Part shown: positions 5,919-38,953 of the stretch, piece after piece | Position numbering within the stretch: the stretch's first letter is position 1 | How the letters are laid out: each line of letters opens with the position of its first letter | Assembly (NCBI GenBank): GCA_050084515.1 | Contig: CM114271.1 | Span: forward strand, 46,686,001-46,750,000 | DNA from: Blasia pusilla | Lineage: Eukaryota | Direction of reading: 5' to 3' | Length of the DNA: 64,000 nucleotides | Made by a program: the position numbers and the translations under genes | The notes under the pieces: generated by a model | Database searches by the model: none | Seen by the model: only the letters and a program-made list of their open reading frames with translations | Told to the model about the DNA's origin: nothing

Positions 5919-6946
5919 TGTCGCAACCCTCATAACCAAACAACACCAAATAGGCGCCAAGCGAAACATCAGAGCTCAAAGGAACTCACGTTACGAGGTT
6001 TGGGCTTTGGAGAGGCGTTTGGAAGAGTCTCTTGGAAAAGTCTAAGAGACGAAACGTGGAACAAAGTTGTGCGTTTCATGCGCTAGTGGTCGCGACCAGG
6101 AAACCTAGACCAAACGCGAGCCAAGACTTGAGATGAGTTGAGTCTTGGGAGGTTGGTTGCCAAAGAGGTGAGAACCATTTTGGAACACGATTAGCGTTTG
6201 GGAGAATCTGACTGTGTTTAGGACCATAACGTTGAGCTCCTATATGCGTTCGTGACAAGTAAGGGCGCGTTGGAAAGCTGATCTTGAGACGCTTCCAACA
6301 AACTAAAGATCTCAGAAAATGCATAAGTATAGGCTGAGATATTGGCCAAAAACGATTGAGAGAGCAATCGGGTTGAGGGCCAATTGGAGAGGCCCGGTGT
6401 CTTCCCTAAATGTAGGGGCCCCGGAGATCCCTAGAAGTACTAGTAAGGGAGGACCCTCTCCGAGATGTCTCGGAAACGAATCCCCACTTTGGGCGCCAAA
6501 CGGCGTTTCAGAGGCACGGGATGGAATGAGAGTTTGGCGCGGAAATCTGAAACCCAAACCTGATCCAAGGGAGTGGACTTTGTACGCCATACTTGGATCT
6601 CAACCCGAGATTCACTTAAATGCAGTCTTGGTGAGGAAATCATTGGATGTCCATCGGATGATTGGAACCGCTAGCGAAGCGAAACGCCGTTTCAGGTTCC
6701 TGAACCGACCAGAAATTCTATCCCAAGTCTTTCGAGATTTGCCCGTGTTGGAAACCGCGAAACTAGGAAGGGTGAGCTTGATGAGAGTCCAAGTGAAGAA
6801 CTCGGAAAGTGATCCCGCTGATTGATCCAAGACCCGACTAACCAAAGTGCGTGTTTGGATGCAGATCATCGTTGAGAGCGTGACCTACTGAAGGCACGCT
6901 TCCACAACAAACAAGATTAACGTTCAAGGAGAGTAGGCGCAGGACA
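5919..6946 (+). repeat. 5' LTR of chromovirus
   Basis: TGTCGCAACCCTCATAACC...GGCGCAGGACA; near-identical direct repeat of 12305-13335. Confidence 0.95.
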
Positions 6947-6948
6947 CG

Positions 6949-6960
6949 TGGTATCAGAGC
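6949..6960 (+). promoter_or_regulatory. Primer-binding site (tRNA-iMet)
   Basis: TGGTATCAGAGC 2 nt after the 5' LTR. Confidence 0.93.
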
Positions 6961-7096
6961 TTATCTTTGATGAGCGTGAACTTGGGGTCGTTGAAGATCT
7001 GGACGTTTGGGGAGAACTCAAGGTAGTCGGAAGACCGCGACGCCAAGGAGGAACGCAAGAGGTGAGGAGGAGATCTGAGAAAGCAAAGACTCGCAA

Positions 7097-10000
7097 ATGG
7101 CGACCAAAGGCGAAGAACCGAGGAAATCGCGAGTCAAAGCAAAAAAGCCGAGGGACGAATCAATGACGGACCGAGAGCCAGAGGTGGAATTTGCGACTCC
7201 TGAAGTGCCGAGTCCCAGACATGAGGATGTTCCAACCGAAAATCTTTCCGCGGGACCTTCGGGTCCAAACTTAAACGATGCGGCCTTTTATATCCAAATG
7301 ATGGGATTGATGAAGGTGATGGCGGACGAGATGGCCGAACAGAGCAAGGTGATATCGGAATTCAAGTTAAATGGAGCCTCTAGTTCTGGCAAGGTGCTTT
7401 GTAAGACTAATTTGCCAACGCCATTCACAGGAATGGGGCGTTCTCGGAAAGTGAGCGAGTTTCTAACGGAAACCCGAACTTTATTTCGAAGCGCAAAAGG
7501 CAGATGAACAAGACAAAGTGACTGTAGCGGTCACGTTTTTGAAGGATCACGCTCTTCATTGGTGGACGGCTCACCGTAAAGAACATCTAGGTCGTGGGAA
7601 AATGTTGAGTTGGGAAGATTTCAAGGAGTTGATTGGGAACCGATTCACTCCGGAATATCAGGAGTATCGCGATGGCATGGAGGTGGTGAGGTTGCGCCAC
7701 AGTGGATCACTTGGCGCTTATGTGCGAGAGTTTAGTGCGCTCATGAGTGCACTTTCCACGGATGAACATACAAAAAAGGTGATCTTCCTAAGTGGGCTCA
7801 AACCAAGTGCCGAAAAGACCCTCTTTCGTATGCTTCACATCCCAGAGACGTGCGCGGATCTTTTGAGACTAGCAGAGCGGATTGGGGATGATGAAGTCCA
7901 ACACCCGAAGCCCTTTGAGACAAAAAGTTTTTCTAAGTTACCGAAAAAAAAGGGACATCCAAGAGGGTTTGGAATGGGGGTGAGTGCGACCACGTAGGGT
8001 CTCTTGCCCCAGCAGTGAAACGAGTGGAACTCAACGCGGAGCCAAAGGGGCCGCCGTTTACGAAGTCAACGAATGCCAAAGTGATTTGCTACAATTGTGG
8101 CAAACCCGGACATATGGCTAAGGAATGTGTTAGGCCCAAGGTTAGTAAACCGAGTATGATTGCGTTTTCCGCTAAGCATTTATCAGAGGGAGATCTAGAT
8201 ACATCTCTACAAGTCACCAAGAGAACACCCAATTTGGTTTACCTAGTATCCAAGATTGCTAATCGCGATGTGATGTTGCTCGTTGATACAGGTGCTTCAC
8301 ACTCATTCTTGAGTCCGAGAATTGTAAAAACGTTGGGATTACCAACCACCAAGGCGGATGAACCCATTAGGGTAGGATTCGCGGGAGGCAAGTCCCACCA
8401 GACTTCAGATCTGGTTTTAGGGCTAGTTGTGAGATGCGGAGTATTTGAGTTGAAGGAGAATTTCACAGTTTGCGACTTGGACCGTATCGACGGAGTCTTG
8501 GCGAACACGTTCTTGGATGCGTATGAGGTGGAACTAAGGCAAAAGCCTTTGAGGTTGAGCGTCTTGGTTAACGGCAAACGGACGGACGTCAGATTGGTTC
8601 GGGAGGTGCCTAGGAAGACGGAGTTGGTGAACGCCATCACGAGGACGAGTTTGGCCGAGTTAGAGGAAGGATTCCTTTGCTTGATGAGACGAGTAGAGGA
8701 TGATGCAAGCGCGAGATGCAGAGATCAGAACTCAGCTTCAAGGGGAATCCTTGAATCACTCAAAAGAGTTGTGAAAGAATTTGGAGATGTGTTGACTAAG
8801 GAGCTTCCGACTGAGTTGCCACCACATAGGGCGGTTGATCATAAGATTGAGGTGATACCAGGATCTCAACCACCTTCAAAAGCACCATATAGGTTGAATC
8901 AAGAGGAACTTGCTGAGTTGAAGAAACAGTTGGGTGAACTCCTAGAGAGGGGTTACATCCGAACAAGCAAGTCACCTTATGGGGCGCCCGTCCTCTTTGT
9001 AAAGAAGAAGGATGGGAAGTTGAGACTCTGTGTGGATTATCGGGCGCTGAATAAAGTGACGGTAAGGAACAACTATCCTCTACCAAAGATGGATGACCTC
9101 TTTGATCGATTTTTGGGTGCCAAGTATTTCAGCCGGATTGACCTGAAATCAGGATATTATCAGATTCGGATTGCCGAAGCGGATGTAGAGAAGACTGCGT
9201 GTAGAACGAGATACGGTTTGTTCGAGTTTGTGGTGATGACTTTCGGTCTTTGTAATGCGCCTCCGACGTTTACCACTTTGATGAACTCCATCTTTCATAA
9301 GGAGACGGATGAGTTTGTGATCATCTATATAGATGACATACTCATCTATTCGAAAACACTAGAGGAGCACACTCGACATTTGAAGACGGTGTTTGAGAAA
9401 CTTAGGGCGAACAAGCTGTATGCGAATGCGGATAAGAATGAGTTCGGTTTGACGAAGATCAAGTTCTTGGGGCATGTGGTTAGTGCGGATGGAGTGAGTC
9501 CAGACATGGAGAAGGTAAGCGCAATTTCCGAATGGGAACCGCCTTCCACGGTGAAGGGGATGAGAAGGTTAATCGGAGCAGTCCAATTTTACCGGACATA
9601 CGTGAAGAAATTTTCTGGAATAGTGAAACCTCTCACGGATTGGACCGCAAAGTTTGCCAATACTAAATAGACCAAGGAATTGGATAAAGCGTTCAATCGA
9701 GTCAAATAGATCCTCTCGCAGGAACCAGTTCTGAAACTGCCGGAGTTTGACCAACCGTTCGAAGTGCACACGGATGCTAGTGATTTCGCGATTGCGGGAA
9801 TGCTAGTGCAAAAAGGGAGACCTGTAGCATACGAGAGCAAGAAGCTTAGCAACACTGAAAGGAGATGGCCTACTCATGAGAGAGAGTTGTTTGCGGTGGT
9901 TCACTGCTTGAGGAAGTGGCGTCACTATCTGGGACTTCACAGGACTCGAGTATTCACCGATAACATATCGCTCAAGTATTTTGAGACCCAGGATCGTGTG

Positions 10001-11611
10001 ACGCCAAAACAACTTCGGTGGTATGATATCTTGGCGTTGATGAATGTGGAGCTAATCCACAAGCCGAGGACAGACAATGTCATTCCAGATGCGTTAAGTC
10101 GTAGGGATGAGCACATGCCATCGACGACACAAGTGTTGAGAGCAATGTTCCCTAATGAAACAGACCTGGAAAGAAGGATTCGTGAAGGATACATGAAGGA
10201 TGTGCAAGCGAGGGAGTACCTTGGAAAGTTAAAGCGGGGCGAGAAGGTGGCCAATCTGAGTTTGAGACACGGCTTGCTAAGGTTTAAGCAGAGCAGGATC
10301 TATGTAGGCCAAGGCAAGCTACGGACCAAGGTGTTTGTGGAATGTCATGATGGACCTTTGGCGGGACACAAAGGGGAGAAATCCACTCTTGCTGTTTTGA
10401 CCAAAAGGTTCTTCTGGCCCAACATGAAGGAAGATGTTGCTCAATATGTGAAAACATGCGTGACCTGTCAGGCAAACCGCGTTTCTTATGCGAAGAAACA
10501 AGGCTTACTTCATCCTTTGCCAATCCCGGAGGGACCCTTGCAAAGCATTAGCATGGATTTCATTACGAGTCTTCTGGAATCTGAGGGATACAATGCTATA
10601 CTTGTGATAGTTGATCGGTTTAGCAAGTTGGGGAGGTTTGTGCCGACGAGAGAGTCTGCGATGGCCTACACGACTTCCCGACTATTCCTGGATGGTTGGT
10701 GGCGAGCGCACGGATTGCCTAGGAGCATTGTGTCCGATGCGAAGTTTTCCAGTGCCTTTTGGAAACATCTATTCAGGAGGTTCCGGACCAAACTCAACTT
10801 TAGTACGGCCTTTCATCCTCAAACGGATGGGCAAACGGAAAAAGTAAACTTGATCGTAAACCAATACTTACGGAATTACGTGAGTGCGGACCAAAGAGAT
10901 TGGGCCAAGTGGTTAAGTATGGCTGAGTATTGTTACAACTTGACTAAGCATTCTGCAATCGGAGAATCTCTGTTTCTTCTGGCGTATCAAAGAGAACCAG
11001 AAGGGCCTCTTGACTTAGCTCTTTCGAAGGGCGCTACATCGACACACACTCGTCAAGCAACGGCGGAATGTTTGTTAGTGGAAATTCAGGAACAACAAGA
11101 GCGGGCGAGGAAAAGTCTCGCCAAGGCTCAACTAAGGTACGTGAAGCATGCTAACAAAAGTCAGCGCCAAGTGAGTTTCCAAGTTGGGGAACAAGTGTGG
11201 TTGAGTGTAAAGAATCTTACTCTTCCGAAGGAATTGTCCGCGAAATTTTCAGCCAAGTATGCTGGACTGTATGTGATCAAGGCAAAGCCGTTTGAGGATG
11301 TACACGTTGGAGCCGCCAAACGAGTTCAAGATTCACCCGACTTTCCATGTGTCATTATTGAAGAAGTATCTTCAAGACAATGTGCGTCGAGCGAAGGAGG
11401 ATGTTGAGACCACAACCGGTCATCAGAAATGAGGAACGAGTTGGAGGTTGAGACCATTTCTGCGTTCAGTAGAGCCACCAATCACGAGTACTTGGTCAAG
11501 TGGAAAGGCTATCATGTGAAAGAGGCGACTTGGATTGCGGAGGCGGATCTTGAACATGCGCAAGAAGCATTGCGTGACTTCAGATGGATGCAAGAAAGGC
11601 ACGTGCGTTAG
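7097..11611 (+). pseudogene. Chromovirus gag-pol with frameshifts and stops: Gag, CCHC knuckle, aspartic protease, RT, RNase H, integrase, chromodomain
   Basis: CYNCGKPGHMAKEC; LVDTGASHSF; YIDD; HTDASDFAIAG; ECHD..GH..C..C; SMDF...FHPQTDGQTE; chromodomain EYLVKWKGY...ATW (11429-11611). Split across ORFs starting at 7097, 7518, 8015, 9764 and 11429. Confidence 0.93.
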
Positions 11612-12291
11612 TACATGGTGAAGCAATGGACATAACTTGTGATCGGAAAGCTTGGGCCGATAACCCGTTGTAACTAGAAATGTTTAGTTGTTGCAATAAA
11701 GAAGACATGGATTTGGAGATTCGATGCTTGTATTGTAATTTTGAGTTTGGTTTGTGCAAGGCAATGAGTAGTTCTTCATATGCTCAGGATGTAAGTCAAG
11801 GAGACCAAACAATGAGTATTTGAGGTGAGAGCTTGTATTCAGATAAGGCATCTAGATCAGGACCAAGTGTTGAAGTACTAGCATTTGGTCTCGCCCTAAC
11901 GTCGGCGGGGCAGATGAGATTTTCTTGGGGTTTGTGGTGATCTCATTCATGTTGCATGGCTGAACTTAGTGACGCGCCTAGATGGAGTACAAGTGACCCA
12001 AAAGTAGTACGAGTTGGCTAGGTAGACATGCGGTTGTTTACAAATAGTGAGTGAAGTGTTAGGTTGCAGACTTAGTGAGCGTATTTTGATAATTAGATTA
12101 ATTCTGCAAAACTGATCTAGGCTGATCGAAAAGAAGAAGCTAATAAGTCTAAGTGTTGCAAGCGACAACCTAACACTTAAGCCAAAAGAGGAATTGCGGG
12201 TTAGCTACCAGAACGCGATTCAGTGTTAAGGGGTCGGCTTCCCAGAACTTAACATTAATAAGGTTTGCGTTGATGAGGACATCAACCTTCT

Positions 12292-12304
12292 AAGGAGGGG
12301 TGAG
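12292..12304 (+). promoter_or_regulatory. Polypurine tract
   Basis: AAGGAGGGGTGAG immediately before the 3' LTR. Confidence 0.85.
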
Positions 12305-13335
12305 TGTCGCGACCCTCATAACCAAACAGCACCAAATAGGCGCCAAGCGAAACATCAGAGCTCAAAGGAACTCACGCTGCGAGGTTTGGGCTTTGGAGAG
12401 GCGTTTGGAAGAGTCTCTTGGAAAAGTCTAAGAGACGAAACGTGGAACAGAGTTGTGCGTTTCATGCGCTAGTGGTCGCGACCAGGAAACCTAGACCAAA
12501 CGCGAGCCAAGACTTGAGATGAGTTGAGTCTTGGGAGGTTGGTTGCCAAAGAGGTGAGAACCATTTTGGAACACGATTAGCGTTTGGGAGAATCTGACTG
12601 TGTTTAGGACCATAACGTTGAGCTCCTATATGCGTTCGTGACAAGTAAGGGCGCGTTGGAAAGCTGATCTTGAGACGCTTCCAACGAACTAAAGATCTCA
12701 GAAAATACATAAGTATAGGCTGAGATATTGGCCAAAAACGATTGAGAGAGCAATCGGGTTGAGGGCCAATTGGAGAGGCCCGGGTGTCTTTCCCTAAATG
12801 TAGGGGGCCCCCGGAGATCCCCAGAAGTACTAGTAAGGGAGGACCCTCTCCGAGATGTCTCGGGAAACGAATCCCCACTTTGGGCGCCAAACGGCGTTTC
12901 AGAGGCACGGGATGGAATGAGAGTTTGGCGCGGAAATCCGAAACCCAAACCTGATCCAAGGGAGTGGACTTTGTACGCCATACTTGGATCTCAACCCGAG
13001 ATTCACTTCGTGCGTTTCTTGGTGAGGAAATCATTGGATGTCCATCGGACAGTTGGAACCGCTAGGCGCGAAACGCCGTTTCAGGTCCCTGAACCGACCA
13101 GAAATTCTATCCCAAGTCTTTCGAGATTTGCCCGTGTTGGAAACCGCGAAACTAGGAAGGGTGAGCTTGATGAGAGTCCAAGTGAAGAACTCGGAAAGTG
13201 ATCCCGGTGATTGATCAAAGACCCGACTAATCGAAGTGCGTGTTTGGATGCAGATCATCGTTGAGAGCGTGACCTACTGAAGGCACGCTTCCGCAACAAA
13301 CAAGATTAACGTTCAAGGAGAGTAGGCGCACGACA
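12305..13335 (+). repeat. 3' LTR of chromovirus
   Basis: TGTCGCGACCCTCATAACC...GGCGCACGACA, direct repeat of 5919-6946. Confidence 0.95.
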
Positions 13336-14520
13336 ATACACTCTATTCGCCATCCCCAATATGTACTTAACACTAGCACCACTTAAGCTGGCAAAGGATT
13401 TTTCTCTCCAACTCCAACTCTAACTCACAATCCCCTTGAACCACAAGTAAAGCAAGATGGGAATACGGCTAAACTCATGCACCTTTTCAGTTGTATGAAA
13501 ATGGGGATGAAGCCTTTGGTCAATACCTAGTTTCGTCCAAAAAACACAGAATGCAACAACATATGCTGATGTGTTGTTGCGTTCCTCATTTTCAAATGCA
13601 TGGGATTTGATTCTCTATATTTTTTTTTATCGATTCCACTCTCTTCAATTCACAACGTTGATTGTCCAAAAAACTCTTCTAATTATTGAGCTAAAAGATA
13701 GGAGGAGAGCCTACTGTTTTTTTTTTTGACTTACTAGAACATAAAAGAGTAAAGCACACATCTATCATGTTTTCCTTTAGATTCAACCCCTTTGAAGCCT
13801 TCTCAATTTCCTCTACAAGCATGGAGACCAATCACTTTTAGGTTCTTCACAACTTGCACAAACTTAACTATAACTCAGGATTATATTGGTAACATTTAAT
13901 TGGTAAAATATTTTGAATACTCAAATTTAGTATTTTCAAAATGTTTTACCAATTAAAAAGAAGATATCTCATTAGGTGGAAAAATCCTTTCCAATTATTT
14001 AAAAAAAGAGAGTTTTACAAGCGTACGGTTATTATTTGAGGTGTGTAGAGTTCTTAAAGATTTTTTTCCTTAAAAAAAAACTAGGTGGATGATTGAGAAA
14101 CCTAGGTTTTAAACATTTCCCCATCTTTTAAGAGTAAGTCCTCATGAAAATTGTGACAACACTCATTACACTCATCTTTTCAAAAGTTGAAGGATTCGAC
14201 AAGAAAGGAAAATTTTTAAGTTTCCTCTTTCAAGAAGGTTTTTGTTTGCCTAGTTGTATTTATAACCAACCTTTTAGTTTTTTAAAGATGTTTTTAACTA
14301 ATTTTGTGTTATTATTTTTCTCTACAATAAGTGAAAATTCAAGTCCTTGTAGTAGGACTTCCTAGACTCTTTGATAACCCCAATGGGTCGTGAAGACAAT
14401 TATCTTCAATTTATTCTTCAATGTCTTCAAACGTAACAATGATCAGACCTTATCACAAGAAGTTTTTCCTTGATAGACCTTGCACTTCTCCTACACCCTA
14501 TCTATCTAATTTTTTTTTCT

Positions 14521-27284: not shown

Positions 27285-29150
27285 GTTTAGGGATCGGATT
27301 CAGTGAACATTCCTTGTTCCATGAACTCAACACAGGATTGCAGAATGAATAAAAGGACCACTTGAGACAAGCTACAGGATTCAAAACATGACCTCTTCAT
27401 CGTAAGTGACTGGATCACTTAAGAGTTCACAATCCTAGCAAATTCCATTATAAATTCTTCCCGCGACTACTAGTTTTTACTCTCCTTCTGGCCGCTGGAC
27501 AGGTTGTCGAGTCGCTTTTCAAGGCTTTCGCAATAATTTGATCTTCCAGTTCAGGATACAAACTTATTCCCATCAGTTCCGTTAAATGTGTTGGCAGCAC
27601 ATTTATTGCTCGTCTGCACTCTTTCTCTACACTCTAATTGTGGTTCCTGCGTCAATTACACGGACGATTCACGAGGGGAAGTTGTACTGGTCGTAGATGT
27701 ATACCTTCTTTGTTGTCGGTGCGTTGTCCATGTTGCCCACCTGATATTGTGTTCCTCCCGGCAGCCAAAAGTCTCAAACTATGCAGGACCATGGGCAACA
27801 ATGGAATGGAAACTTGGTCTTATCTTCCGCAGAGCGAAGTTACCACGCTTGCAGTGGGATTCCTATCGTCGCCAATCTCAAATCCAATTGGAACTCACGA
27901 TCGTTACCAGTTTGACTGTCGACTGGATGCGAACATGTTTTCCTCTCCTCTCATCCCTTACACCGCTAACCGGCTAAACATCGTTTGGGACAGAACGCTC
28001 TTAAATGGCGTTGCTACGTAATCACTTGAAGAAAGTCTGGAGCGCTTACAGCCTGACATTCGTCACCTCGTGCGATATCTGTGACCATATATTCAACGAC
28101 ATCGCAGTTCTCACGCATGTGTGCCTAGGACTTTCATATCGTTTCGCGTTCTCCCCAAGGAGGCAAAGTCCACGGACCATGCTCTAAAAGAAGAGAAGAA
28201 AGCTCAGGAATCTAAACTCTTCGTCGCCGCTACCTTTAAAAGAGAAGAAATAGTCCACGTACATAGACTACTTGTCGTCTCGGTAGCATATAAGAGACGA
28301 AACCCACGAGAGCCGTGATAACCTCGCAAAAGAGACAGTCACGCACATCACCTTTCGTGGTAGAAAGAATTAAAGATAGAACTTAGAAAAGGCTTACTTG
28401 TCAATGCCGGACGGCAGATTACCTCCAAGCTCAAGAAAGGTATGCCACGCCATGAAGAACGTGAAAGTTCTGCAACGATTCGGGCCAGCAAAGGGCGAAA
28501 CACAGATTCTTTCGATTGCCTTTCGTTTCTCTGACACGATTCCTCCGATTCTGGCGCGCCTACTTTGACGCACATTTTGACAGCAGTCTCTATAGACTCT
28601 ATTCAAGAGATTCTTGGTTGATCACGGACAGTAGGCGGCGTCAGACAAGACGCGAGCAGATATGCCAGCGCAGCAGCTGGGCGTCATTGTCGGTATTTGA
28701 ATTTTGAAGTTGGAAGGAGGTCAGCCGAGAAGATTACTTTAATAGAAAAAATAAATAAACTGTGTTAACTGGCTGGTCGCCGAATGGAAGGCGGGTTTCC
28801 ATTAATTTTTTTAAAAAAATTAGGAAGTAGTGGAAGATTAATGACGTTGCATACAAATTAAAATAAAATTTGTCCGTGACTTGTGAAATATTTTTTATAT
28901 GATTATCATGTGTCAAACATATAGGTATTCGTAAATCAAGAAGGCATTTTCCCATAATAATATAGATTTCACAATAATTTTTTAGATTTATTTAGAAAAA
29001 GATGAATGAATAATTGTTATAGGTTGTCGAAATATAGTTTTCCAACGCGATCGTCTTTGAAATAAGCTTGCGTATATGATTTGTAACATCCATGATTAAG
29101 ATCTGGCATGCGATTGGAATGGAAGGATCGTACGGAAAAGCAAGGAAGTT

Positions 29151-29286
29151 TGTCGTGCGCATACATATCGCTACACAACATACATCGTTGGTCACATCTA
29201 CGCCACACAACACCGATCTTCCCCACACACGGGTCGATCCACACATGTACAAAAATCAACTCATACATATACATGGAGATCACACA
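29151..29286. repeat. Repeat A (136 bp), direct repeat of 29770-29905
   Basis: TGTCGTGCGCATACATATCGCTACAC...GGAGATCACACA versus TGTCATGCGCATACATATCGCTACAC...GGAGATCACACA. Confidence 0.95.
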
Positions 29287-29288
29287 AC

Positions 29289-29767
29289 AAAAATAAAGAG
29301 TAGTAAAAATGACACACCCGGCCTAAACTCCACTCCTCAATCTACACCGGCATATCGAGCCTCGTCCACCCTGTGTTATCAAGGAATCCGGATGCTAGCA
29401 CCCTAGTCCTATCTCACACACATACAAGGGAGGTGCTCCAACGACCCAACATGAGAAAGATGGCTTAGGAAAGCCATCTTCCTCTCTTATATAGGGTTGG
29501 GAAGAGCCAAAAGGCTTTTCCCCTAAAAATAGCCCTCCCCTTGATAACCTGCGCGCACAGGTTACCAAGGGCGGGTGACCTGGTCAACAAGTCATCTGGC
29601 TGTAAAAGACCTCAACATGAAAGTTGTCAGAAACGACGTTCCTGACGCAATGGACCTATTCTCAATCTCATCCGACACTGTGGGACAAAGTTACAATGAA
29701 GATAGTCCGCTGGCTTCTACGCCCTATCCACGATAGATCTCGGCCTATCGGTTACTCAGATGTGACA
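29289..29767. repeat. Repeat B (~479 bp), direct repeat of 37948-38426
   Basis: AAAAATAAAGAGTAGT...TCAGATGTGACA in both copies. This copy lacks the first TGT. Confidence 0.95.
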
Positions 29768-29769
29768 GC

Positions 29770-29905
29770 TGTCATGCGCATACATATCGCTACACAACAT
29801 ACATCGCTGATCACATCTACACCATACAACACCGATCTTCCCCACACACGGGTCGATCCACACATGTACAAAAATCAACTTATACATATACATGGAGATC
29901 ACACA
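29770..29905. repeat. Repeat A', directly downstream (minus strand) of the PPT AGGGGGGCGAT
   Basis: Second copy of A. Minus strand reads ...CTAGGGGGGCGAT|TGTGTGATC. Confidence 0.93.
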
Positions 29906-29983
29906 ATCGCCCCCCTAGTTGGCACTTGGATCCCCCCAACTCCAGATAGAAAATATCACATCTCTCTGACATGACCTACTACC

Positions 29984-30145
29984 CTATACACATCTCGAAC
30001 ACATCCATCGTCCCGTGGGAACCACATCAAGAGGGGGGGTCAGACATGACATATGCCACCCTCGAGAACAACCATCACATACCAACATGGTGGCTGCACC
30101 CCTCGCAGATCCGCACAACATACACCTCAAGCCTGCATGTACCAT
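29984..30145 (-). pseudogene. PHD finger at the C-terminus of integrase
   Basis: CMLCGSARGAATMLVCDGCSRGWHMSCLTPPLDVVPTGRWMCSRC is a complete C4-H-C3 PHD with the conserved W before the last Cys pair. Confidence 0.93.
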
Positions 30146-30325
30146 TGCCAAGCTCGGATCCACCGTCCCATCTACGTTCGGAAGATGACATGGCGCACAA
30201 TTGCGCACATGATCCTTCCAAACCATACAATCCCGTTCCTCCAACATGAGGACTCCGGTTGGTAATACCTCGCGCACACATAGGATCGTGCGCCCCGCAG
30301 TGACATCTAGCGTCGTGGGTACCGC

Positions 30326-33056
30326 CTACTGTAAATACACGTAATCTCCACGATGAAACCTCCTAATCCCTGGACGATAACCTCCTCCACGAATGGTCGC
30401 GTACCTCAATGTATCTCTATGCGAGGCAGTAGCTAAGTTCTCAAAGGCCATAGGCATAACTCTACGAAAAACTTTTGCCCTCTGAGAACATGCTTGTACC
30501 CACACATCTGGATCATCAAGATCTAACACCTCCGCCATGTCACGTCGAATCGCTGTAGGTAAATCTGGCTCTCTCCCAAAGAGCAAAACGTACGGTGAAA
30601 ATGACGACAAGGATGCCTGTCGACTAAAGCGATAACGCATAGCCAACCATAGCAACTGTAGATCCCACTCCCTCAACTGTCCCCGCCGCAAGCCATACTT
30701 GCGCAATCCTCTCTTCATCGTCTGTACCACTCTCTCCGCCAACCCATCCGCCTCAGGATGATCTCTGGACGTGGTGCGGTGATCTATCAGCGCCTTATCA
30801 CATAAGGCCTGAAACTCTCCCCTGAACTCGGTACCCTGGTCAGTCAACACCTCCGCCGGTGCACCAAAGTGACTAAGCACACGATCTAGAAACGCATAAG
30901 TTGTTCCCTTGCTCACCTTGTCTGGTAGTGCCACCAACTCTATCCACTTGGAGAAATGCTCCACCATGACCAACACGTACCTATGATGACGTCCCGTCAA
31001 TGGCAAAGGTCCCGCAAAGTCTAAACTCCACCGATAACCTAAACCTATAATCGGCAAAGGATGTAACTGCGGAGTGGGAGCATTGAAGGATGCTCGACTC
31101 TGTCACATACCATACATCCGCCACAAACCGCTGTACCCCAATATGCATGCCGCGCCACCAAAAGATTGAACCCGAGTAAGTGTAAACGCTTTACTCCGAA
31201 ATGTCCCAACTCCTCATGGGCATGTCGTACTACACGTGCTTGCTGGGAAGGATGAGGTACCACTCGTATCTTACCATCTCCCCATACCCGCAAAATGTGA
31301 GTCTCCTCCCCCCGAACCTCTTGGCTCTCTCAGAGGATCCGATCCGCTCCCTAGCACTCATGACTCGCAATGACGCCGGTGCGCAAGAACTCCACAACCT
31401 CCATGTCGTCATGGATATCACGACCACCACCGCCTCCTCACTAACCTCCGGATCCAAAGACTCATCATCCAACCCCACCACCGAGTCATCACCGCGGGTG
31501 ACCGCCATAGTCAACCAACAAAGATAGGCAGATGCATGCCAACCGGGCACCATCTCCTCATCACTCTCTCCGTGCCATCGAGCTCTTGTGTCGTCTCTCT
31601 GACTCGGACATGGGTTACGACTCAACCCATCCGCATCCTAGTTCAGCCGACCTAGCCTATGAACCACCTCCAAACTCATACTCATGTAGTAATAGAGCCC
31701 ACCTCGCAAGCTTTCCTGTAAGCTTGTCGGACTCCATCAACCACCTCAACGGCTGATGATCAGTGATAAGTGTGAAAGGGTTGCCGAATAAATAGCACCT
31801 GAAATGTGCCACGGCCCACAATGCAGCCAAGCACTCTCCCTTGTAGGAGCTGTACTTTGCCTCTGCAATGTTGTTCGATCCGCTCGCGTAAGCCACAACG
31901 AACTCCCTCTCCTCATCATCCCTCTGAGTAAGCACTGCTCCTAGACCCAACATGCTCCAATCCGTATGTAACTGGAATGGGCGACCCCTAACCGGTCTTT
32001 GTAAAATGGGTGAGGACGTCAACCTGTCCTTGAGCTCCTGAAATGCTCGCTCTTGATCATCTCCCCACAACCAAACCTAATCAAGTCTCGTCAACAAGGT
32101 CAAAGACTTTGCGATCGCACTAAAACCCTTGACATACCGTCGATAGAAGTTTGCCAGTCCAAGAAATGCTCGAACTCGACTCACATCTGTAGGGCGTGGA
32201 ATCTACGCAATAGCCTCTACCTTCGTCTGCTGAACGCCTAACTCACTCGGGTATATGGTGTGTCCCAAGTACTCAATCTGCTCCTGAAAGAATCTGCACT
32301 TGGCTGGATGTAACTTCAGTCCATGTAACTGCGATCTCCGAAACACCTCCTCCAAGTGTCGCTCATGCTCCTCAACTGTGGAACTGAAGATAAGAATATC
32401 ATCTATGTAACATTGTACAAAATCCAAGCCAGCCAGTATCCTATCCATCACTCTCTAAAACTCTGCAGGCACGTTCTTCAACCCAAATGGTAAGAACCAC
32501 CACTGATACAAGAAATCTCTCCCGAATCGATCTATCCCCCAGAATGTTGTCTTCTCCGTGTCCTCCAACCTGATAGGAAGCTGATGATAGCCAAAGATGG
32601 AGATCTAAAAAGCATCAAGATCTTTGCATGCCCTACCGCATCAAAGATCTCCTCAGGAGTAGGCATGGCGTACCGATCTGACCTCGTCTGTCGGTTGATA
32701 GGACGGTAATCTCCACACATCCGCCTATCCGTCCAATTGCCATACATATCCTTCTTTGCCGGCATGACTGTGGCAGATGCATACTCCCCATGTGATAACT
32801 CCACAAGTCGTGCCTCCAACAAGTCCTGACTCCTGCTCTAAATCAAGGCTCGCTCCATATCAGAATACCTGTAGGGTCGACATTTAAAGATCGGCGTATC
32901 ACTAGCCAACTCAATCCGTATCCCGGGACCCTTCTGCGTACCCAAGTCTCTCATACTGAAGGCAAAACAACTGACATGCCCTCTCAGAAACCTATGAACT
33001 CGCCGTCGCTCTCCTCCTATCAACTTGAGACCTATCACAGGCTCCCAAGTCTCCAT
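30326..33056 (-). pseudogene. RT, RNase H and integrase of the MTase-Gypsy (fragmented)
   Basis: RT: YASATVMPAKKD..RMCGDYRPIN, YIDD. RH: LHTDWS..GLGAVL, ECLA..WAVAHFRCYL, TDHQPL. IN: HAHEELGHFG..CMVC, SLDFAGP, LTDQGTEF, GLAERVVQ. Confidence 0.93.
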
Positions 33057-33369
33057 CGTGACCTCACTCGGAGAGGACGCAACCTCCGCCTTTGGTTGCT
33101 ATGTAGCAACCCTAGCCACCTCCGCAACAACCACTCCACTCTGACCTCCTACACCATGCTCCACATCCTAAAAATGAACATGTGCTACTCTAGCCGCCTT
33201 CGCACTCTCTGCTTGAACGACGTCCCAGGAAGTCCATGGGTGCCTATCTCTCCTCGTCTCGCCCCCAGCCAATGCCTATACAGACCCTATAGGCAATGGT
33301 CCAACTCATGGATGTGATGGCATGGATGACACTCGCATCCGTCTGTGCTCAGCCATACCTAGGCTGACT

Positions 33370-34320
33370 ATCCATGTGAGACAGTTGAGGTCCATCGCCT
33401 GCCCCAACACCTGTCTCCGGGATGCCTCAGTCATCCCTGGCACCGCCGTAGTACCGGTAGTGAACCCCATGGCGCGCTCGCGCTCATCTGCTGTAGGCTC
33501 CTCCAATGCTCTGGTCACCTCATCCCAAATCATGCCTAGCCCTCCCTGAGGAAAGGCACGGGATGCTGGGAAGCTCACCAACGTAGGTAAGGCTGCCCTC
33601 AACTCCCCCACCCTATTGGCCATGGCCAATGGTGGTCTATCATCCCGTGTCACCACCTGAGATCGATGCCCTAAGCCGAAAATAGCATCCACTGTGAGAT
33701 GTGGTGCTCTTTGGACTCCACCGTATGCTTGACGTGGAGTGACATATCATGACGTATCATGTTCGTCCACCACAGTCGTGGACGATGGGCACGTGACCCA
33801 ACTCTCGCTGCATCTAACAACACAGCAGGTCCCAACTAGGACCTCACCTGATATACACTCGTCATCACACGTGCACGAGTGTCCATTGGAGAACATGCCG
33901 GCATGTTCTCCAAAATGTACGTTGGAGAACAAATGTGACTCTCCTGCAAGTGTCGTACTACTTACAGCATCTCCCAAAACATCCCTGACCTCGGATTCTG
34001 CAATCCAAATCCTCGGCCAGCTGATGAATGATCCTGACATGGCCATCCAACAATCACCAAATGAATGGTGCCAACTCTATGCATATCCTGTGCCCCCACC
34101 AAAGAGATGTCGGCGGGTAGCGTATGCTGATATCCCCGTACTGCAGATACCAGCAACAACTCAGGATACCTTTGGACCAATCTCGCCACGTGACGTAATG
34201 ATACTCGCCGCGCGGTCTCATCTCTCTCCACATAAAGGTACTGATGCACCCGTATGCCCGCCTGCAATAGTGCAACCAATCCGGTGCTAATCCCTTCAAA
34301 GAGATCTAACACCCTAACAC
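33370..34320 (-). pseudogene. C5 cytosine DNA methyltransferase domain, DNMT3-like (disrupted)
   Basis: Motifs in linear order: I RVLDLFEGISTG; II YVERD; IV GWPCQD; VI YILENM (~33900-33920); VIII LDAARVGSRAHRPRLWWTN (~33760-33815); IX ERERAMGF..GTT; X RRQVLGQAM. Confidence 0.9.
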
Positions 34321-34701
34321 CCTCCTCTGGGCATTGCCACACAACAGGTGTGGTATCCAGTGGGGTCAACCTCTCCACTCCAAGAGCCCGATCGCCATGT
34401 GACTCTTGCTGCTCTGGGATAAAAACATGACTCCACGCCTGCCTCACGAGGTCGTCGGCACTCCTCTGTAGCTCTCGAGTCGTACCCCACAATGGTGAAG
34501 AGGCCTCGCCAACATGGGAAGAGACACCCGCCATGGCTTGTCTCTCCGTGGGACTATCCGCTACTGGGACATCCTCCGCATGTGCGTTCTCCTCCAACTA
34601 CTCTCCTGGCCAACTAACACTACTTGTGAAAGTTGCCAACGTGGTCACAGACTCGCCTCGTGATCGACCACCTCGTCCCGCAAACTGCACGGGTAACTGA
34701 C

Positions 34702-35118
34702 TCATCTGGCCAGGATGGCAGTTAGGTGACGGCCAGGATGGACATCACCTAACCGCCATCCTGGCCGATAAGCAACGGTCTCCTCCCAGAAGTCAATGAT
34801 GAATCCTAGGGGATATAACACTGTACTCCCCACCAACACATCGTACGACTCAACTGGTGTCTTAATCGCACGTGTGCGCACCATAGCACTATCCGTCACA
34901 TGCTCTGGCTAGACTCTGACAACAATCTCCTGTCGAGTCATATACTGAGTGGGTGATACGCCCCCAATCGAGGTCTGTATCTGGAAGGGACAAGGCTCAA
35001 TGTCGGCCTTCCGTAACCCCAACGCTAAACACGCCGCCTTCCCTAACATCAAGGGTTGCGCTCCCGAATCAAGTAGGACATGCTGCGGGTGATATACTGT
35101 CACCGTCGGACTAACCAA
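34702..35118 (-). pseudogene. Retroviral-type aspartic protease
   Basis: VLLDSGAQPLMLG ... YDVLVG, with one in-frame stop at 34909-34911. Confidence 0.8.
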
Positions 35119-35985
35119 GCAAAATACTCAAGCTCGGTTATCCAGTAACACTACTCCAGGTGTCACCACTGCTCGTTCTATGGCCAGTCGAGCTGGCATA
35201 TCTACCAACTTCGCCGCCGCCGCATGCCATGACTCTGTGGGGAACGTCCCAAGCACCGGCTCTGAGGGCAAGTCCACCACCTTCTCAACTACCTTTGAAC
35301 AAGAAGCAATCATCTCTCCACGCTCACACAACATGGCGGCCAACCGGAATACCTCAGCTGGTCCAACCCCCAACGTCGCCAACTCTATGGCGGAAAATAG
35401 CGGAGTCTGACTCACTCTGGTGGCCACCTCCAACACTATGGTCGACACTGACTCCACTCGAGCCGGCATAGGAGTTGTCACTCCAACTCCTCGTGACGTC
35501 GACGTGGAGTGTGCCGAATCAGAGGCACTTTGCTGGTCGTCGAGGCACCATCGATGGTGTGTGTAGTGCCTCCGACAATGTGAACGACTGTGGAACCCTG
35601 GCCTGCCGCCCATTGGTCCCCTCTGGTGGATCAATCTCAACTCCACCTCTCGATGGCTCGGTGCCTCTCGTAGCACCCCGAGTCACCACTGCAGCTGCCT
35701 CAACCTGGGCTACACTACACATAAATCCCATACTGGCGAGATCCTCACCCGGGTCAGGGTAAGAGGTAGAAGTTGGAGTCACACTAGCTGCTCGCAGTTC
35801 TGTGCCTTCCCTAAGCTGCATCATCGTCATGGCAGCAATCCTTGGCTCCAGCCGATCGATGCATGAGAGAAGTGCCGGTTCTGGTGCTCCTGCTCCATCT
35901 CCTCTGGCTGGTGGTGGTCCTCTACCACCACGTCCAGGAAAAACTCCCCGACCTCCTCTAGGACGACCGCCCCCAGGCCCTCGGC

Positions 35986-37065
35986 CTACCTCTGGACGTG
36001 CCCCTCAGCAAAGGTCAAAACATCTATCCCTAGTGTGACCATATATGTGGCAATGGTCACATTGGTGCTCTGGTGGGGCCATCCTCTGTGGCTCCTGAGA
36101 AATCGGAGGCACTGGTGGCCCTCTCCCATGCTGAGGGCAGTCTCTCTGCCTATGGGCCCCTCCACACGTCCAACAAGACCACATCGGTCCCTGCTGGGCA
36201 ACATATGTAGGTACGGTCGTTGCCTCATAGGCTCACGGTACCCGCCCCGCTCTCTAGGCACACATTGGCCCGCTCCCATGGTATCGGTGCTTCTTGTGGG
36301 TGGGCACTGTGGGGTCACCGTCGCTCGTGGACCCGTCAACTCTCGAGAAAATCCAGCGGTCACTACCTGCTCCTCACTCATGTTGAGCTCAATATGCTCA
36401 GACAACTCAAAGACCACCTTCAATGTGGGCTTCACTGTGTGAATCAACACCACATCTCGGACTCTCCTCCGTAGTTCTCGGTCCAGAACCCCGTACCAAT
36501 ACTGGACCGGCTGTGCCTCAGTCACTCCAAACGTAGCAATGATCAACCTCCTCATGCGCGTGAATGCCTCTCTCCGACTCTCACCCGATCGTCGCTGAAA
36601 ATCCTGTAGACTCTTTAGCTTGTCGGTGCGTACGCCCTGGTAGCTCTTCCCCAACTGTCGGAAGAACTCCACTATGGGGCTAAAGCTGGGTGGCCCTCTA
36701 CCACCAGAGGTCTCTGCCACATCGCCTGTCTCACTGCCCTCCTCTCCATCTAGTCTCCGGGCTGATGGTGTGGGTCTCTCTCCTCTCACAATCCCATCAT
36801 ATGCCTCGCGACCACTAGTGGACAGATACCCTGGAGCCCAATACATCCTCCAAGCATCGATCTCTAATGAATATAGTGATCGAAACTCCATGTAGTCATC
36901 CATCGGAGGACCCTCCAAGTGCTGGAACAACCCCTTCCATGCCATGAAAGGGTTGAACCGTGTCGGGGTCCGTATCTCCTGGAAGTCGCACCATGTGTCG
37001 AACTCCTGGATAAAATCATCTAAGTCGATGGTGCCCACTACACCATGTTGTCCATCTCCTGCCAA
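35986..37065 (-). pseudogene. Gag with two zinc knuckles in a shifted frame
   Basis: 359-aa ORF at the 5' end of the element. An alternative frame gives CWTCGGAHRQRDC (~36140-36175) and CDHCHIYGHTRDRC (~36020-36061). Confidence 0.8.
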
Positions 37066-37947
37066 GTACTACTGTCTCTGTGTGTGATCTCGTCACCAGA
37101 CCCTGTGTCCAATGATGACGAGCCAGCCACAGATGGATGTCAAGGTAGCTCCTCACTGGTAACCCCTCGGTATCTCACTCCACTCCGTGTCACACCACTA
37201 CTACTGCTCGCACTACCCTGTTCTTCCAAACCCTAGAAGAACGCCGTGATGACAAACCCTGTCTCACCCGCTCAAGCACTCAGACTCACCGAGAGTCTCC
37301 CACACGCCTCACTAGCTCACCTATGCTAACATCAATCCCATGATGACATACCCGGCCTCACGCACGCTCAACACTCGGGCTCACCATGAGCCTCCCAACT
37401 GACTCACCTAACCTAGCGACACTCTCTTGGGTCATACACATGACCCCTACTTGGCAACCGCCGTATATCCACCAACATGCTACAGACGAAAAGAATCTAC
37501 ACTCGTCACCATCACTGCACCCACCTAGCACCAGCTACTACCCGATACCGAGCACTCTCAATCACACACGACAAGTGCGAGAAAAGGGATGCGCGGAGGG
37601 GGGGAGGGGGCGCGCCGTCACCGCCCGCCGTCTGTCCGCGACCGCTGACCTAAACGCCCGTTAGCGCCCCCGGCGGCTGCAAGCCCTAACTCTCTTTTCT
37701 TCTCTGTCTCGACACCCACACTCGCGTACACCCGACGCTCCACCGCACATTACACTCGGCTGCTGTCCCGCGTCAATCCGTACCAGCAAAATCTGAGAAA
37801 AATGGACAGCGCTTCCGCCCACGGCCTTCCAAACAGAAAAATGACAAACACCCGCAACACACGCGTCTCCAAGGGCTCTTGACCAAGGCAACTCACTTGC
37901 CTACCTGCAAACAAGGAATTCCCACCAGCCCCCTGACATCTTTCTCA

Positions 37948-38426
37948 TGTAAAAATAAAGAGTAGTAAAAATGGCACACCCGGCCTAAAACTCCACTCCT
38001 CAATCTACATCTGCATATCGAGCCTCGTCCACCCTGTGCTATCAAGGAATCCGGACGCTAGCACCCTAGTCCTATCTCACACACATACAAGGGAGGTGCT
38101 CCAACGGCCCAACATGAGAAAGATGGCTTAGGAAAGCCATCTTCCTCTCTTATATAGGGTTGGGAAGAGCCAAAAGGCTCTTCCCCTAAAAATAGCCCTC
38201 CCCTTGGTAACCTACGCGCACAGGTTGACCTGGTCAACCTGGTCAACAAGTCACCCGGCTGTAAAAGACCTCAACATGAAAGTTGTCAGAAACAACGTTC
38301 CTGACACAATGGACCTATCCTCAACCTCATCCGACACTGTGGGACAAAGTTACACTCAAGATAGTCCGCTTGCTCCTACGCCCTATCCACGATAGATCTC
38401 GGCCTATCGATTACTCAGATGTGACA
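37948..38426. repeat. Repeat B' (5' terminal repeat) with minus-strand TATA box at 38150-38156
   Basis: TGTAAAAATAAAG...GATGTGACA. Minus strand reads TATATAA..25 nt..ATCTTTCTCA. Confidence 0.93.
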
Positions 38427-38953
38427 AGTTCAACGACGCTTCTTCTAATTCGTCCTACTTAGGGCATGTCATGGGGAGCCTTTGGCATCTCCCATCCAAT
38501 TCCTTGGGATGTTCTGTGGAAAATGCCCGTCGTGTCCAACAGTGTATACAGCGAGATACGCACACTATGTGTTGCATAATCGTACATATAGATTGGTGAA
38601 GAACTCGCGTTGATCCACAGAATGCATGCCAACCATTTGTAGGATATCGTAGCAAATACATATGGACCATCCCAGAGTTGATTGTCTCCTCCCGGTACAC
38701 ACAAGTGCGGAAGAGTTCACGTCTAGCTAGGTATGAGAGGCGCATGTTTGTCATCTTGGGAGTCATTTTTCATGTTTGCAATTAGTTTATGAGTCCACTT
38801 CATACAAGTCATTTGCAAAATATTTGCGAGCCTAATGCGAGTTGACACTAGTTTGCGACTGTTCCTAATTTTTCATGTAAGTTGCAAGTCTTGTGTATTT
38901 GCGAGTCCAAAGAGACGCAAAAGACTTGACACATCACATTGAGATTTGCAAGT

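Follow-up and report, generated by a model that had tools for sequence, protein, structure and literature searches.

Split, permuted terminal repeats in a degraded Ty3/Gypsy element of Blasia pusilla, with integrated ends that fall inside its long terminal repeat

Introduction

How can a retrotransposon that encodes a DDE integrase come to be integrated with ends that lie inside its own long terminal repeat (LTR)? This question is raised by an element found at positions 29151-38426 of a 64,000-nt stretch of DNA from Blasia pusilla (GenBank assembly GCA_050084515.1, contig CM114271.1, positions 46,686,001 to 46,750,000 of the forward strand), and this whole stretch is referred to as the window. 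LTR retrotransposons and retroviruses integrate by means of the two tips of their linear complementary DNA (cDNA), and LTR circles are treated as dead ends. A first-pass annotation, made from the letters of the window, had described split and permuted terminal repeats at this locus and had read them as the product of integration from a two-LTR circle. The present analysis makes it likely that the element is a dead copy of a high-copy Ty3/Gypsy lineage of green plants in which split, permuted repeats are the normal form, and in which the integrase would use two half-sites at a junction inside the LTR and not the tips of the cDNA.

Layout of the element and its integrated ends

Coordinates are given as positions in the window on the plus strand; the element itself lies on the minus strand. 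The repeated segments, A and B in the first-pass annotation, were renamed in the sense direction: X corresponds to B (B') and Y to A (A'), while J1 designates the junction Y|X and J2 the junction X|Y. The order on the plus strand is A1(29151-29287)-c-B1(29289-29767)-GC-A2(29770-29906)-internal(29907-37950)-B2(37951-38426), which in the sense direction reads X1-internal-Y1-J1-X2-J2-Y2. The segments and the flanking target-site duplication (TSD) are the following.

29147-29150 (no strand): left copy of the TSD, AGTT, identical to 38427-38430
29151-29287 (minus): Y2 (A, terminal copy), the last sense segment, ending ..CGACA at 29151
29288 (minus): J2, the single base that joins the U5 end (X2) to the U3 start (Y2), U5 and U3 being the unique 5' and 3' regions of the LTR
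29289-29767 (minus): X2 (B, internal copy), with a TATA box at 29487-29493 (plus-strand positions) and the 14-nt segment complementary to the primer site at 29449-29462
29763-29774 (no strand): J1 palindrome, two integrase half-sites and a GC spacer (29768-29769); the same junction type is found in other families
29770-29906 (minus): Y1 (A, internal copy), the U3 start of the complete 3' LTR
37951-38426 (minus): X1 (B, 5'-terminal copy), starting TGTCA at 38426, with a TATA box at 38150-38156 and a putative RNA 5' end segment at 38112-38125
38427-38430 (no strand): right copy of the TSD, AGTT, identical to the left copy

The two A segments were found to be 95.6% identical over 137 nt and the two B segments 93.5% identical over 480 aligned columns, and the repeat homology ends exactly at 29151 and at 38426. 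At these points the element displays the tips TGTC..GACA, with AGTT on either side; the chance of such a 4/4 flank match is 1/256. The uncut copy of the Y|X boundary is the 12-bp palindrome TGACA-GC-TGTCA at 29763-29774. The window copy does not have two complete LTRs, one per end: its 5' end consists of X only and its 3' end of Y-X-Y. The split permuted repeats, the palindrome, the tips and the TSD that had been described at first pass were thus all confirmed in the window.

The left flank (28800-29133) is itself repetitive, since its read depth was about 27 as compared with 0.37 for the right flank. The element therefore sits inside another repeat.

The same layout in related elements

The window integrase was aligned with 19 metagenome-derived homologues, and 80 related loci were retrieved, brought into the sense orientation and examined by self-comparison and by mapping of X and Y. 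After de-duplication by flank, 38 distinct 3' ends were obtained, comprising 16 that read Y-X-Y, 18 in which Y is followed by unrelated flank, and four that were ambiguous (partial Y, or Y with partial X). All nine clear distinct 5' ends start with X at TGTCA directly after unrelated flank, and Y was located upstream in none of the nine. It had been proposed that termini and TSDs of other copies would lie at the A/B boundary, and this was the case in every copy examined, namely the window copy, the nine 5' ends and all full-length Y ends of the related loci. Conventional copies with A'+B' LTRs at both ends were also looked for, and none was found among the window element and the 80 loci.

The end motifs are kept even in families that can no longer be aligned in X or Y: X starts with TGTCRTG and Y ends with CAYGACA. 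Likewise, the J1 junction ..GACA-NN-TGTC/TATC.. is retained across families, NN being GC, AC or AT, and several diverged families also keep a G-run tract a few bases before Y1. The flanks of the nine elements with both ends visible compare as follows.

Window: AGTT / AGTT, 4/4
L004: AAGG / AAGG, 4/4
L003: TGTT / TGTT, 4/4
L016: TACA / TACA, 4/4
L051: ACTA / ACTA, 4/4
L009: 3/4 match
L080: 3/4 match
L049: 2/4 match
L070: 1/4 match

The match was therefore 4/4 in five of the nine elements, 3/4 in two and at most 2/4 in the other two. Because five perfect matches in nine were obtained at a chance of 1/256 each, the flanks are decisive evidence for a staggered-cut, integrase-type insertion at the TGTC..GACA ends. 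The AGTT match in the window is not attributable to chance, since independent relatives show this arrangement too, again between matching flanks of 4 bp.

Some loci could not be assigned to either type of 3' end. L033/L037 and L073 show Y with partial X, while L040-L043 show partial Y, and they were left unclassified. In addition, no X1 was found within 10 kb upstream of the Y-X-Y ends of L045, L059/L061 and L062; these copies are 5'-truncated or longer than the locus. Locus L020 contains two pairs of head-to-tail tandem duplications downstream of the integrase (8097-8414 and 8535-9002; 159 bp and about 230 bp, 93-94% alike), at the place where Y and X are expected, and no recognisable Y was detected there.

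Family size and junctions in public reads

Parts of the stretch are contained in 13 public runs from seven studies. Four of these runs were mapped, and neither the runs with small word shares nor the air-metagenome rows are drawn upon for host or habitat. From the raw-read run that carries the same species label, about one read in 100 was sampled, and 69,594 reads were placed. Along the element the depth amounted to about 340-650 per direction, whereas it was 0.37 over the final 315 bases of the right flank. This flank value rests on about one read, and the family size is thus given only roughly, as a thousand copies.

A total of 1099 raw reads stop matching just before 29151, and the consensus agreement of their loose ends is 0.34, which means that many different flanks adjoin the A start. 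The A start is hence a family-wide terminus, as had been anticipated. In a further 796 raw reads, the sequence before 29150 resembles a diverged B end and finishes with ..GTGACAG. The A1/B1 join (J2) was covered at a depth of 726, with a 1-nt deletion in 9 of the 726 reads, and the boundary between B2 and the primer site at a depth of 984. The ratio of both values (726/984) suggests that about three quarters of the copies of the window family carry J2. Furthermore, a 421-nt contig from a second organism label spans 29259-29678, including J2. Given the coverage at family depth and this contig from a second organism label, the join is a family trait and not a scar of the window copy.

These results bear on the possibility that the layout is a local accident or artefact, that is, a misassembly, a nested insertion into a solo LTR or an unequal recombination in the window copy. 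Nothing beyond the odd layout of a single copy speaks in its favour. On the other hand, every junction, when inspected for misassembly, was covered at family depth in raw reads, the contig from another organism label spans J2, and the same layout was found in 16 distinct loci from several diverged families with TSDs of their own. The same kind of layout is also in print for Klebsormidium, in a figure legend (PMC5890265). A local accident is accordingly regarded as extremely improbable.

The differences between the window copy and the family reads over 28800-38800 consisted mainly of C>T (900 places) and G>A (760 places), with 35-214 places for each of the other types. This excess is as expected if methylated cytosines have decayed, the element itself having once encoded a cytosine methyltransferase. 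It was also observed that the A segment after 29190 or 29809 (29190-29904, 29809-29904) continues with a different, CA-rich sequence in about 820-875 reads per place, with an agreement of 0.85-0.88. The middle of Y therefore differs between subfamilies, both ends of Y being kept.

Borders set by reverse transcription

In order to place the integrated ends with respect to the LTR, the two borders that reverse transcription would define are needed.

29907-29918 (minus): polypurine tract, sense ..AGGGGGGCGA, with the G run at 29910-29915
37937-37950 (minus): putative self-priming primer-binding site, the 14 nt directly after X1, a perfect complement of X positions 302-315

An equivalent G run was found 3-6 nt before Y1 in all 13 locus rows listed. 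In the window, the complement of the primer site starts 31 nt after the start of the TATA box, at the place where the onset of transcription is expected. The first 16 nt after X1 pair perfectly with a segment of X in the L004 family, and the first 15 nt do so in L080. Three families whose sequences are unrelated thus have the pairing segment 27-33 nt behind the TATA box, and the chance expectation for one 14-mer match is about 3e-5. Because the pairing covaries in these three families, the clear reading is that of a putative self-priming site of the Tf1/Sushi kind directly after X1. A primer site of the tRNA type after X1 was considered and rejected, as the TGG lies too far off, at 23 nt downstream, and a self-priming match had been detected.

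With the tract before Y1 starting U3 and the primer site after X ending U5, the LTR of the cDNA reads as Y-J1-X. This agrees with the first-pass annotation, in which tract and primer site had been taken to define the LTR as A'+B', and it follows that the integrated ends fall inside the LTR. In the L080 and L044 families, TG..CA is not conserved at the tips defined by reverse transcription, while the J1 half-sites keep TG/CA without exception. A 5' end that consists of X alone would still be transcribable, since the promoter is in X.

Two integrated forms and the J2 join

Two integrated forms were detected, both with TSDs: the split-repeat form X-int-Y-X-Y (B'-int-A'-B'-A'; int, internal region) and a repeat-less form X-int-Y (B'-int-A'). 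The latter had not been foreseen, and it is about as common as the former. They coexist in the L004 family, whose members are 85-92% identical at the nucleotide level and align as whole elements from the start of X to the end of Y1. L003, L016, L049, L051 and the internally deleted L009 are X-int-Y and have no terminal repeat, while L004 continues with X2-Y2. It appears that only X-int-Y-X-Y would yield an RNA with the repeat region (R) at both ends. X-int-Y lacks the 3' R and should therefore be dead on arrival.

A possible origin of the repeat-less form is that every insertion is X-int-Y-X-Y at first, and that Y1 and Y2 later recombine or undergo single-strand annealing, which would yield X-int-Y. 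Recombination is possible between direct repeats of 113-180 bp that are placed 300-480 bp apart, and such an event would keep the TSDs, as observed. However, a maximum-likelihood tree (1250 bp, 15 distinct loci) turned out to be star-like, and the terminal branches of five Y-X-Y copies (0.040-0.087) and ten Y-only copies (0.034-0.10) had about equal medians, the two shortest branches (0.034 and 0.035) being those of Y-only copies. The Y-only copies thus do not appear to be older than the Y-X-Y copies, which argues weakly against an origin by slow Y1-Y2 deletion. Moreover, the finding of 18 Y-only against 16 Y-X-Y ends would demand very frequent deletion between short repeats. Taken together, a later origin of all X-int-Y copies seems distinctly improbable.

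Concerning J2, X ends with ..TTTTCA in both X1 and X2 of the L004 family, and a single purine precedes Y (A in L004, L029 and L031; G in L011). In L019, a patchwork of 19 nt has been inserted at J2, and its final bases are those located right behind the G run of the tract. The members of the L080 group retain 0 (L080), 4 (L072) or 5 (L062) of the bases that follow the G run, and in one contig from a public run (depth 10.9) Y is joined to X via part of the primer site and six other letters. J2 therefore has the look of completed cDNA ends that were joined to each other, in most cases precisely and in some with irregularities. It would not be contained in the RNA if reverse transcription is of the ordinary kind, so that it would have to be remade in each cycle. 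The first-pass annotation had likened the B/A join to an end-joining scar: this does not fit its reproducibility within the window family (depth 726), but the join does differ from one insertion to another in related families.

Loci L069 (2300-2724) and L072 (4518-4942) show a Y-X-Y tail with an X2 of only 75 bp and an identical 3' flank, and are probably one locus. Either an internal deletion of X2 or an aberrant U5-U3 join may account for it.

A proposed route of integration through J1

On the basis of these data the following route is proposed. Reverse transcription would be conventional in outline, with U3 starting at Y by way of the tract and U5 ending after X. The integrase would then use the J1 half-sites ..CAYGACA | NN | TGTCRTG.., nicking after CA on each strand of J1. 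As the two nicks would be 2 bp apart, the duplex would open, and each CA-3'OH end would be left recessed behind a 5' overhang of 2 nt, as in normal 3' processing. Strand transfer to target positions staggered by 4 bp would generate the TSD, and the NN spacer would be lost. If both J1 sites of a plain linear cDNA were cut, or the single J1 of a one-LTR circle, X-int-Y would result. If the U5 end were first joined to the U3 start (J2) and J1 were cut afterwards, the replication-competent X-int-Y-X-Y would be formed. The J2-bearing molecule could be a two-LTR circle, or a cDNA extended at its 3' end by a third LTR. More speculatively, the GU-rich start of Y2 may act as the downstream element of the 3' polyadenylation (poly(A)) site, X1 being without one.

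The first of these molecules corresponds to the original proposal, in which the linear cDNA is ligated into a two-LTR circle and the integrase opens either J1 at random. The integrated form is an exact circular permutation of such a circle. J2 is a near-precise U5-U3 join that in some insertions shows patchwork insertions or retained bases from behind the polypurine tract, and in one contig a partial primer site; irregularities of this kind resemble retroviral circle junctions. It has also been described, in the parts of the sources consulted, that foamy-virus and human immunodeficiency virus type 1 (HIV-1) integrases cleave palindromic LTR-LTR junctions (PMC1180852, PMC1905944). Nevertheless, with a random cut the mirror form X-Y-X-int-Y should be as frequent as X-int-Y-X-Y, and it was found in none of the six elements in which the 3' end is Y-only and the 5' end can be seen. 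It was equally absent from the nine clear 5' ends, although there are 16 distinct Y-X-Y 3' ends. The presence of J2 in about three quarters of the window-family copies is also high for a by-product of host end-joining, and the circle itself was not observed. A randomly cut two-LTR circle is consequently a doubtful explanation, though one to be kept in mind. Of the original proposal, the cut at the internal palindrome is supported, while the circle is unproven.

The second molecule would be a linear cDNA in which the plus strand, on reaching the U5 end, switches end-to-end onto the U3 start, thereby adding a third LTR at the 3' side. The integrase would take the first X-side half-site and the second or third Y-side half-site, giving X-int-Y, X-int-Y-X-Y or a solo X-J2-Y, and never the mirror form. 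This would account for the asymmetry and for the coexistence of the two integrated forms, and it fits the high J2 share in the window's family. The single J2 purine in three families would also fit the non-templated addition that reverse transcriptases make before a template switch. Against this stands that the scheme is pure inference and that no clear solo X-J2-Y with a TSD was found, the candidates (L009 at 1-470, and L037 on the minus strand) being too decayed for ends or TSDs to be recognised. To our knowledge, no three-LTR linear cDNA is known for Ty3/Gypsy elements. A third LTR is for these reasons considered unlikely.

Whichever molecule carries J2, integrase action at the internal palindrome appears well supported by the conserved ends, junctions and TSDs. 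Several points weigh against this reading and the route built on it. Cleavage at J1 and the intermediate are deduced from sequence. The absence of the mirror form means that the simplest circle model needs an added bias: either one J1 is preferred over the other or the substrate has a direction of its own. X-int-Y could arise by Y1-Y2 recombination, and with 15 loci the branch comparison is a weak test. Two of the nine complete elements (L049 and L070) have no recognisable TSD, and the window copy and all inspected relatives are degraded. The 80 loci were drawn from a handful of metagenomes, and the number of host genomes behind them may be small. Finally, the heterogeneous flanks that are expected behind 38426 were not among the loose-end rows listed (6 of more than 4000), an absence that carries no weight at this coverage.

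Coding region and neighbouring elements

The coding region of the window copy is composed of the following parts.

35986-37068 (minus): gag-like open reading frame (ORF), assigned by eye, with a CX2CX4HX4C knuckle in the neighbouring frame (36005-36232)
34909-35127 (minus): aspartic protease with the motif LLDSGA, assigned from the translation by eye only
33306-34597 (minus): Dnmt3-like C5 cytosine methyltransferase, in at least three broken frames (Pfam PF00145, E 4.2e-5)
32203-32837 (minus): reverse transcriptase in three frame-shifted pieces (Pfam PF00078, E 1.1e-16 for 32203-32454)
31657-32076 (minus): RNase H (Pfam PF17917, E 9e-34)
30326-31329 (minus): integrase, with a frame-shifted zinc-binding region (31045-31329) and the DDE core (30326-31102; Pfam PF00665, E 4.5e-15)
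29984-30325 (minus): PHD finger at the integrase C-terminus (Pfam PF00628, E 2.7e-11)

The order of domains in the sense direction is gag, protease, Dnmt3-like methyltransferase, reverse transcriptase, RNase H, DDE integrase and PHD finger. The succession of reverse transcriptase (PF00078), RNase H (PF17917) and integrase (PF00665) on the minus strand is that of Ty3/Gypsy Pol, to which the relatives add PF17921. Pfam gave no match for the gag, protease, zinc-knuckle and integrase zinc-finger ORFs of the window copy, and these assignments are derived from motifs in the translation or from relatives. The translations contain many stops and frameshifts, and judged by them the window element is a dead copy of the Ty3/Gypsy type on the minus strand.

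For the methyltransferase, the best solved relatives were DNMT3A and DNMT3B (E 2e-4), and the PF00145 match spans only part of the broken domain. In the intact relative P0017 the methyltransferase is located N-terminal to the reverse transcriptase, within one protein that continues with RNase H, integrase and PHD finger. No chromodomain was detected by Pfam at the integrase C-terminus, where the PHD finger is found instead. Integrase homologues at 72-91% identity came from metagenomes and from proteins named as liverwort by their sources, and more distant ones from proteins named as moss, Klebsormidium, Closterium and chlorophyte. The homologues carry PF17921, PF00665 and PF00628; the PHD finger is present in most of them and the methyltransferase in some.

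A quite different explanation of the split repeats would be the insertion of a closed circle by a tyrosine recombinase of the DIRS/Ngaro/PAT type through site-specific recombination. The split direct repeats do share the topology A1-int-B1-A2-B2 with those elements. However, a scan of 16 distinct ORFs from the window element and of the intact relatives P0017 and P0057 gave no match to a tyrosine recombinase (PF00589), and a DDE integrase with a zinc domain is present. Besides, the element has 4-bp TSDs and TG..CA tips, whereas elements with a tyrosine recombinase make no TSD. Such an origin can scarcely be entertained.

Two further sequence features were noted. A perfect 28-bp palindrome occupies 33886-33913, inside the methyltransferase region. 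About 38 bases at 34706-34745 are missing from most family copies: 34706 is joined to 34745 in reads and in contigs, usually via about six other letters (242 raw reads at the main joint). The extra bases are part of a hairpin-like 59-bp inverted repeat at 34708-34766.

The window also contains a conventional Gypsy element on the plus strand (5919-13335), with LTRs at 5919-6946 and 12305-13335 that are 96.7% alike, a TSD of ATAC on both sides, a primer site TGGTATCAGAGC after the 5' LTR, and reverse transcriptase and RNase H at 8936-10033. Its LTR tips, TGTCG..GCGCACGACA, share their end motif with the J1 half-sites of the split-repeat element. This insertion splits a diverged fragment of a methyltransferase-bearing Gypsy on the minus strand (4603-5923 and 13370-13415), the only other related sequence within the window. 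The fragment shows about 69% nucleotide and 45-52% protein identity to the protease/methyltransferase region of the split-repeat element. No usable ends were recognised in it, and no reverse transcriptase, RNase H or integrase part was found below 4603.

Implications

The integrated ends of a lineage with about a thousand copies in one genome cannot come from the tips of its cDNA as defined here, and they match the halves of an internal palindrome. If the proposed reading holds, this would be a natural case of a retroviral-type integrase acting on a junction of abutted ends. It would also link the integration of retrotransposons to the circle-junction chemistry of bacterial insertion sequences (IS) and to the disputed idea of an LTR-LTR junction as substrate. 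Split-repeat elements, and above all the X-int-Y form, escape LTR-based annotation, and therefore the repeat content and the Gypsy diversity of bryophyte and algal genomes may be undercounted. The Dnmt3-type methyltransferase and the PHD finger that the element carries itself add an epigenetic angle.

A wider generalisation can be formulated, although the balance tips slightly against it. A whole old green-plant lineage of Gypsy elements with a DDE integrase, from streptophyte algae to bryophytes and perhaps chlorophytes, may never integrate via its cDNA tips. It would first have to join U5 to U3, and the integrase would then cut a circle-junction-like palindrome inside the LTR, similar to the use that IS3-type elements make of their circle junction. 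The by-products would be a large population of X-int-Y insertions without terminal repeats, and permuted copies that are overlooked or wrongly annotated by LTR finders. In addition, the downstream element through which only the 3' poly(A) site is functional may be provided by the extra Y behind the 3' LTR.

Comparison with known systems

The closest precedent is KnitGypsy-Dnmt3 of Klebsormidium nitens, which is described in the legend of Fig. 4c of de Mendoza et al. (2018; PMC5890265) as having a DIRS-like repeat structure (A-coding-B-A-B) together with Gypsy domains. That legend contradicts the statement of the first-pass annotation that split repeats do not belong to Gypsy elements with a DDE integrase. 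Both elements have a Dnmt3-type methyltransferase inside Gypsy Pol and the same repeat order, as far as the available part of that source goes (PMC5890265). They differ in host, the closest named homologues of the window element being liverwort proteins, and the text of that source, in the part seen, gives no ends, TSDs, internal palindrome, primer site, repeat-less form or mechanism (PMC5890265). The K. nitens proteins P0007 and P0056 match the window integrase at 56% and 51% identity. Beyond the 2018 legend, no account of the ends, TSDs or mechanism of split-repeat Gypsy elements was found in the literature, although figures and supplements may hold more. The layout has thus been noted in print once and not explained, and the window element is a further member of its kind.

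Another lead is Gypsy-7a_cRei of Chlamydomonas reinhardtii, which has a PHD finger, is active in laboratory strains and is mentioned with "LTR subparts" in a legend (PMC9940879). Like the window element it is a Gypsy element with a PHD finger, and its repeats may be split as well. Chlorophyte proteins are among the homologues of the window integrase.

The DIRS, Ngaro and PAT elements share with the window element the split direct repeats A1-int-B1-A2-B2 and the permuted or circular intermediate that these imply. They insert without target-site duplication, whereas the window element has no tyrosine recombinase and possesses a DDE integrase, TG..CA tips and 4-bp TSDs.

Self-priming is a property of Tf1/Sushi-type LTR retrotransposons. 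It has also been predicted for the moss Tcn1 clade, according to the part of the report consulted (PMC6317226). The window element resembles both in that the first nucleotides predicted for its transcript would pair with the putative primer site directly behind U5. It differs in having a PHD finger in place of a chromodomain and an LTR that is permuted when integrated.

With regard to the cleavage reaction, foamy-virus and HIV-1 integrases are described, in the sections available, as cutting the palindromic LTR-LTR junction of two-LTR circles (PMC1180852, PMC1905944). The likeness lies in a ..CA-NN(NN)-TG.. palindrome, made of two abutted integrase end sites, that would be cut to integration-competent ends. 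In those viruses the palindrome is the junction of the cDNA tips and a normal provirus is regenerated. In contrast, the palindrome of the window element lies inside the LTR and is inherited through U3, and the provirus is permuted. In the copy-out, paste-in cycle of IS3 and IS911, circle junctions in which the ends abut with a spacer of 2-4 bp are an active substrate of the DDE enzyme. These are DNA elements without reverse transcription, so that the likeness is one of analogy: in both cases abutted ends with a short spacer would serve as the substrate of a DDE enzyme.

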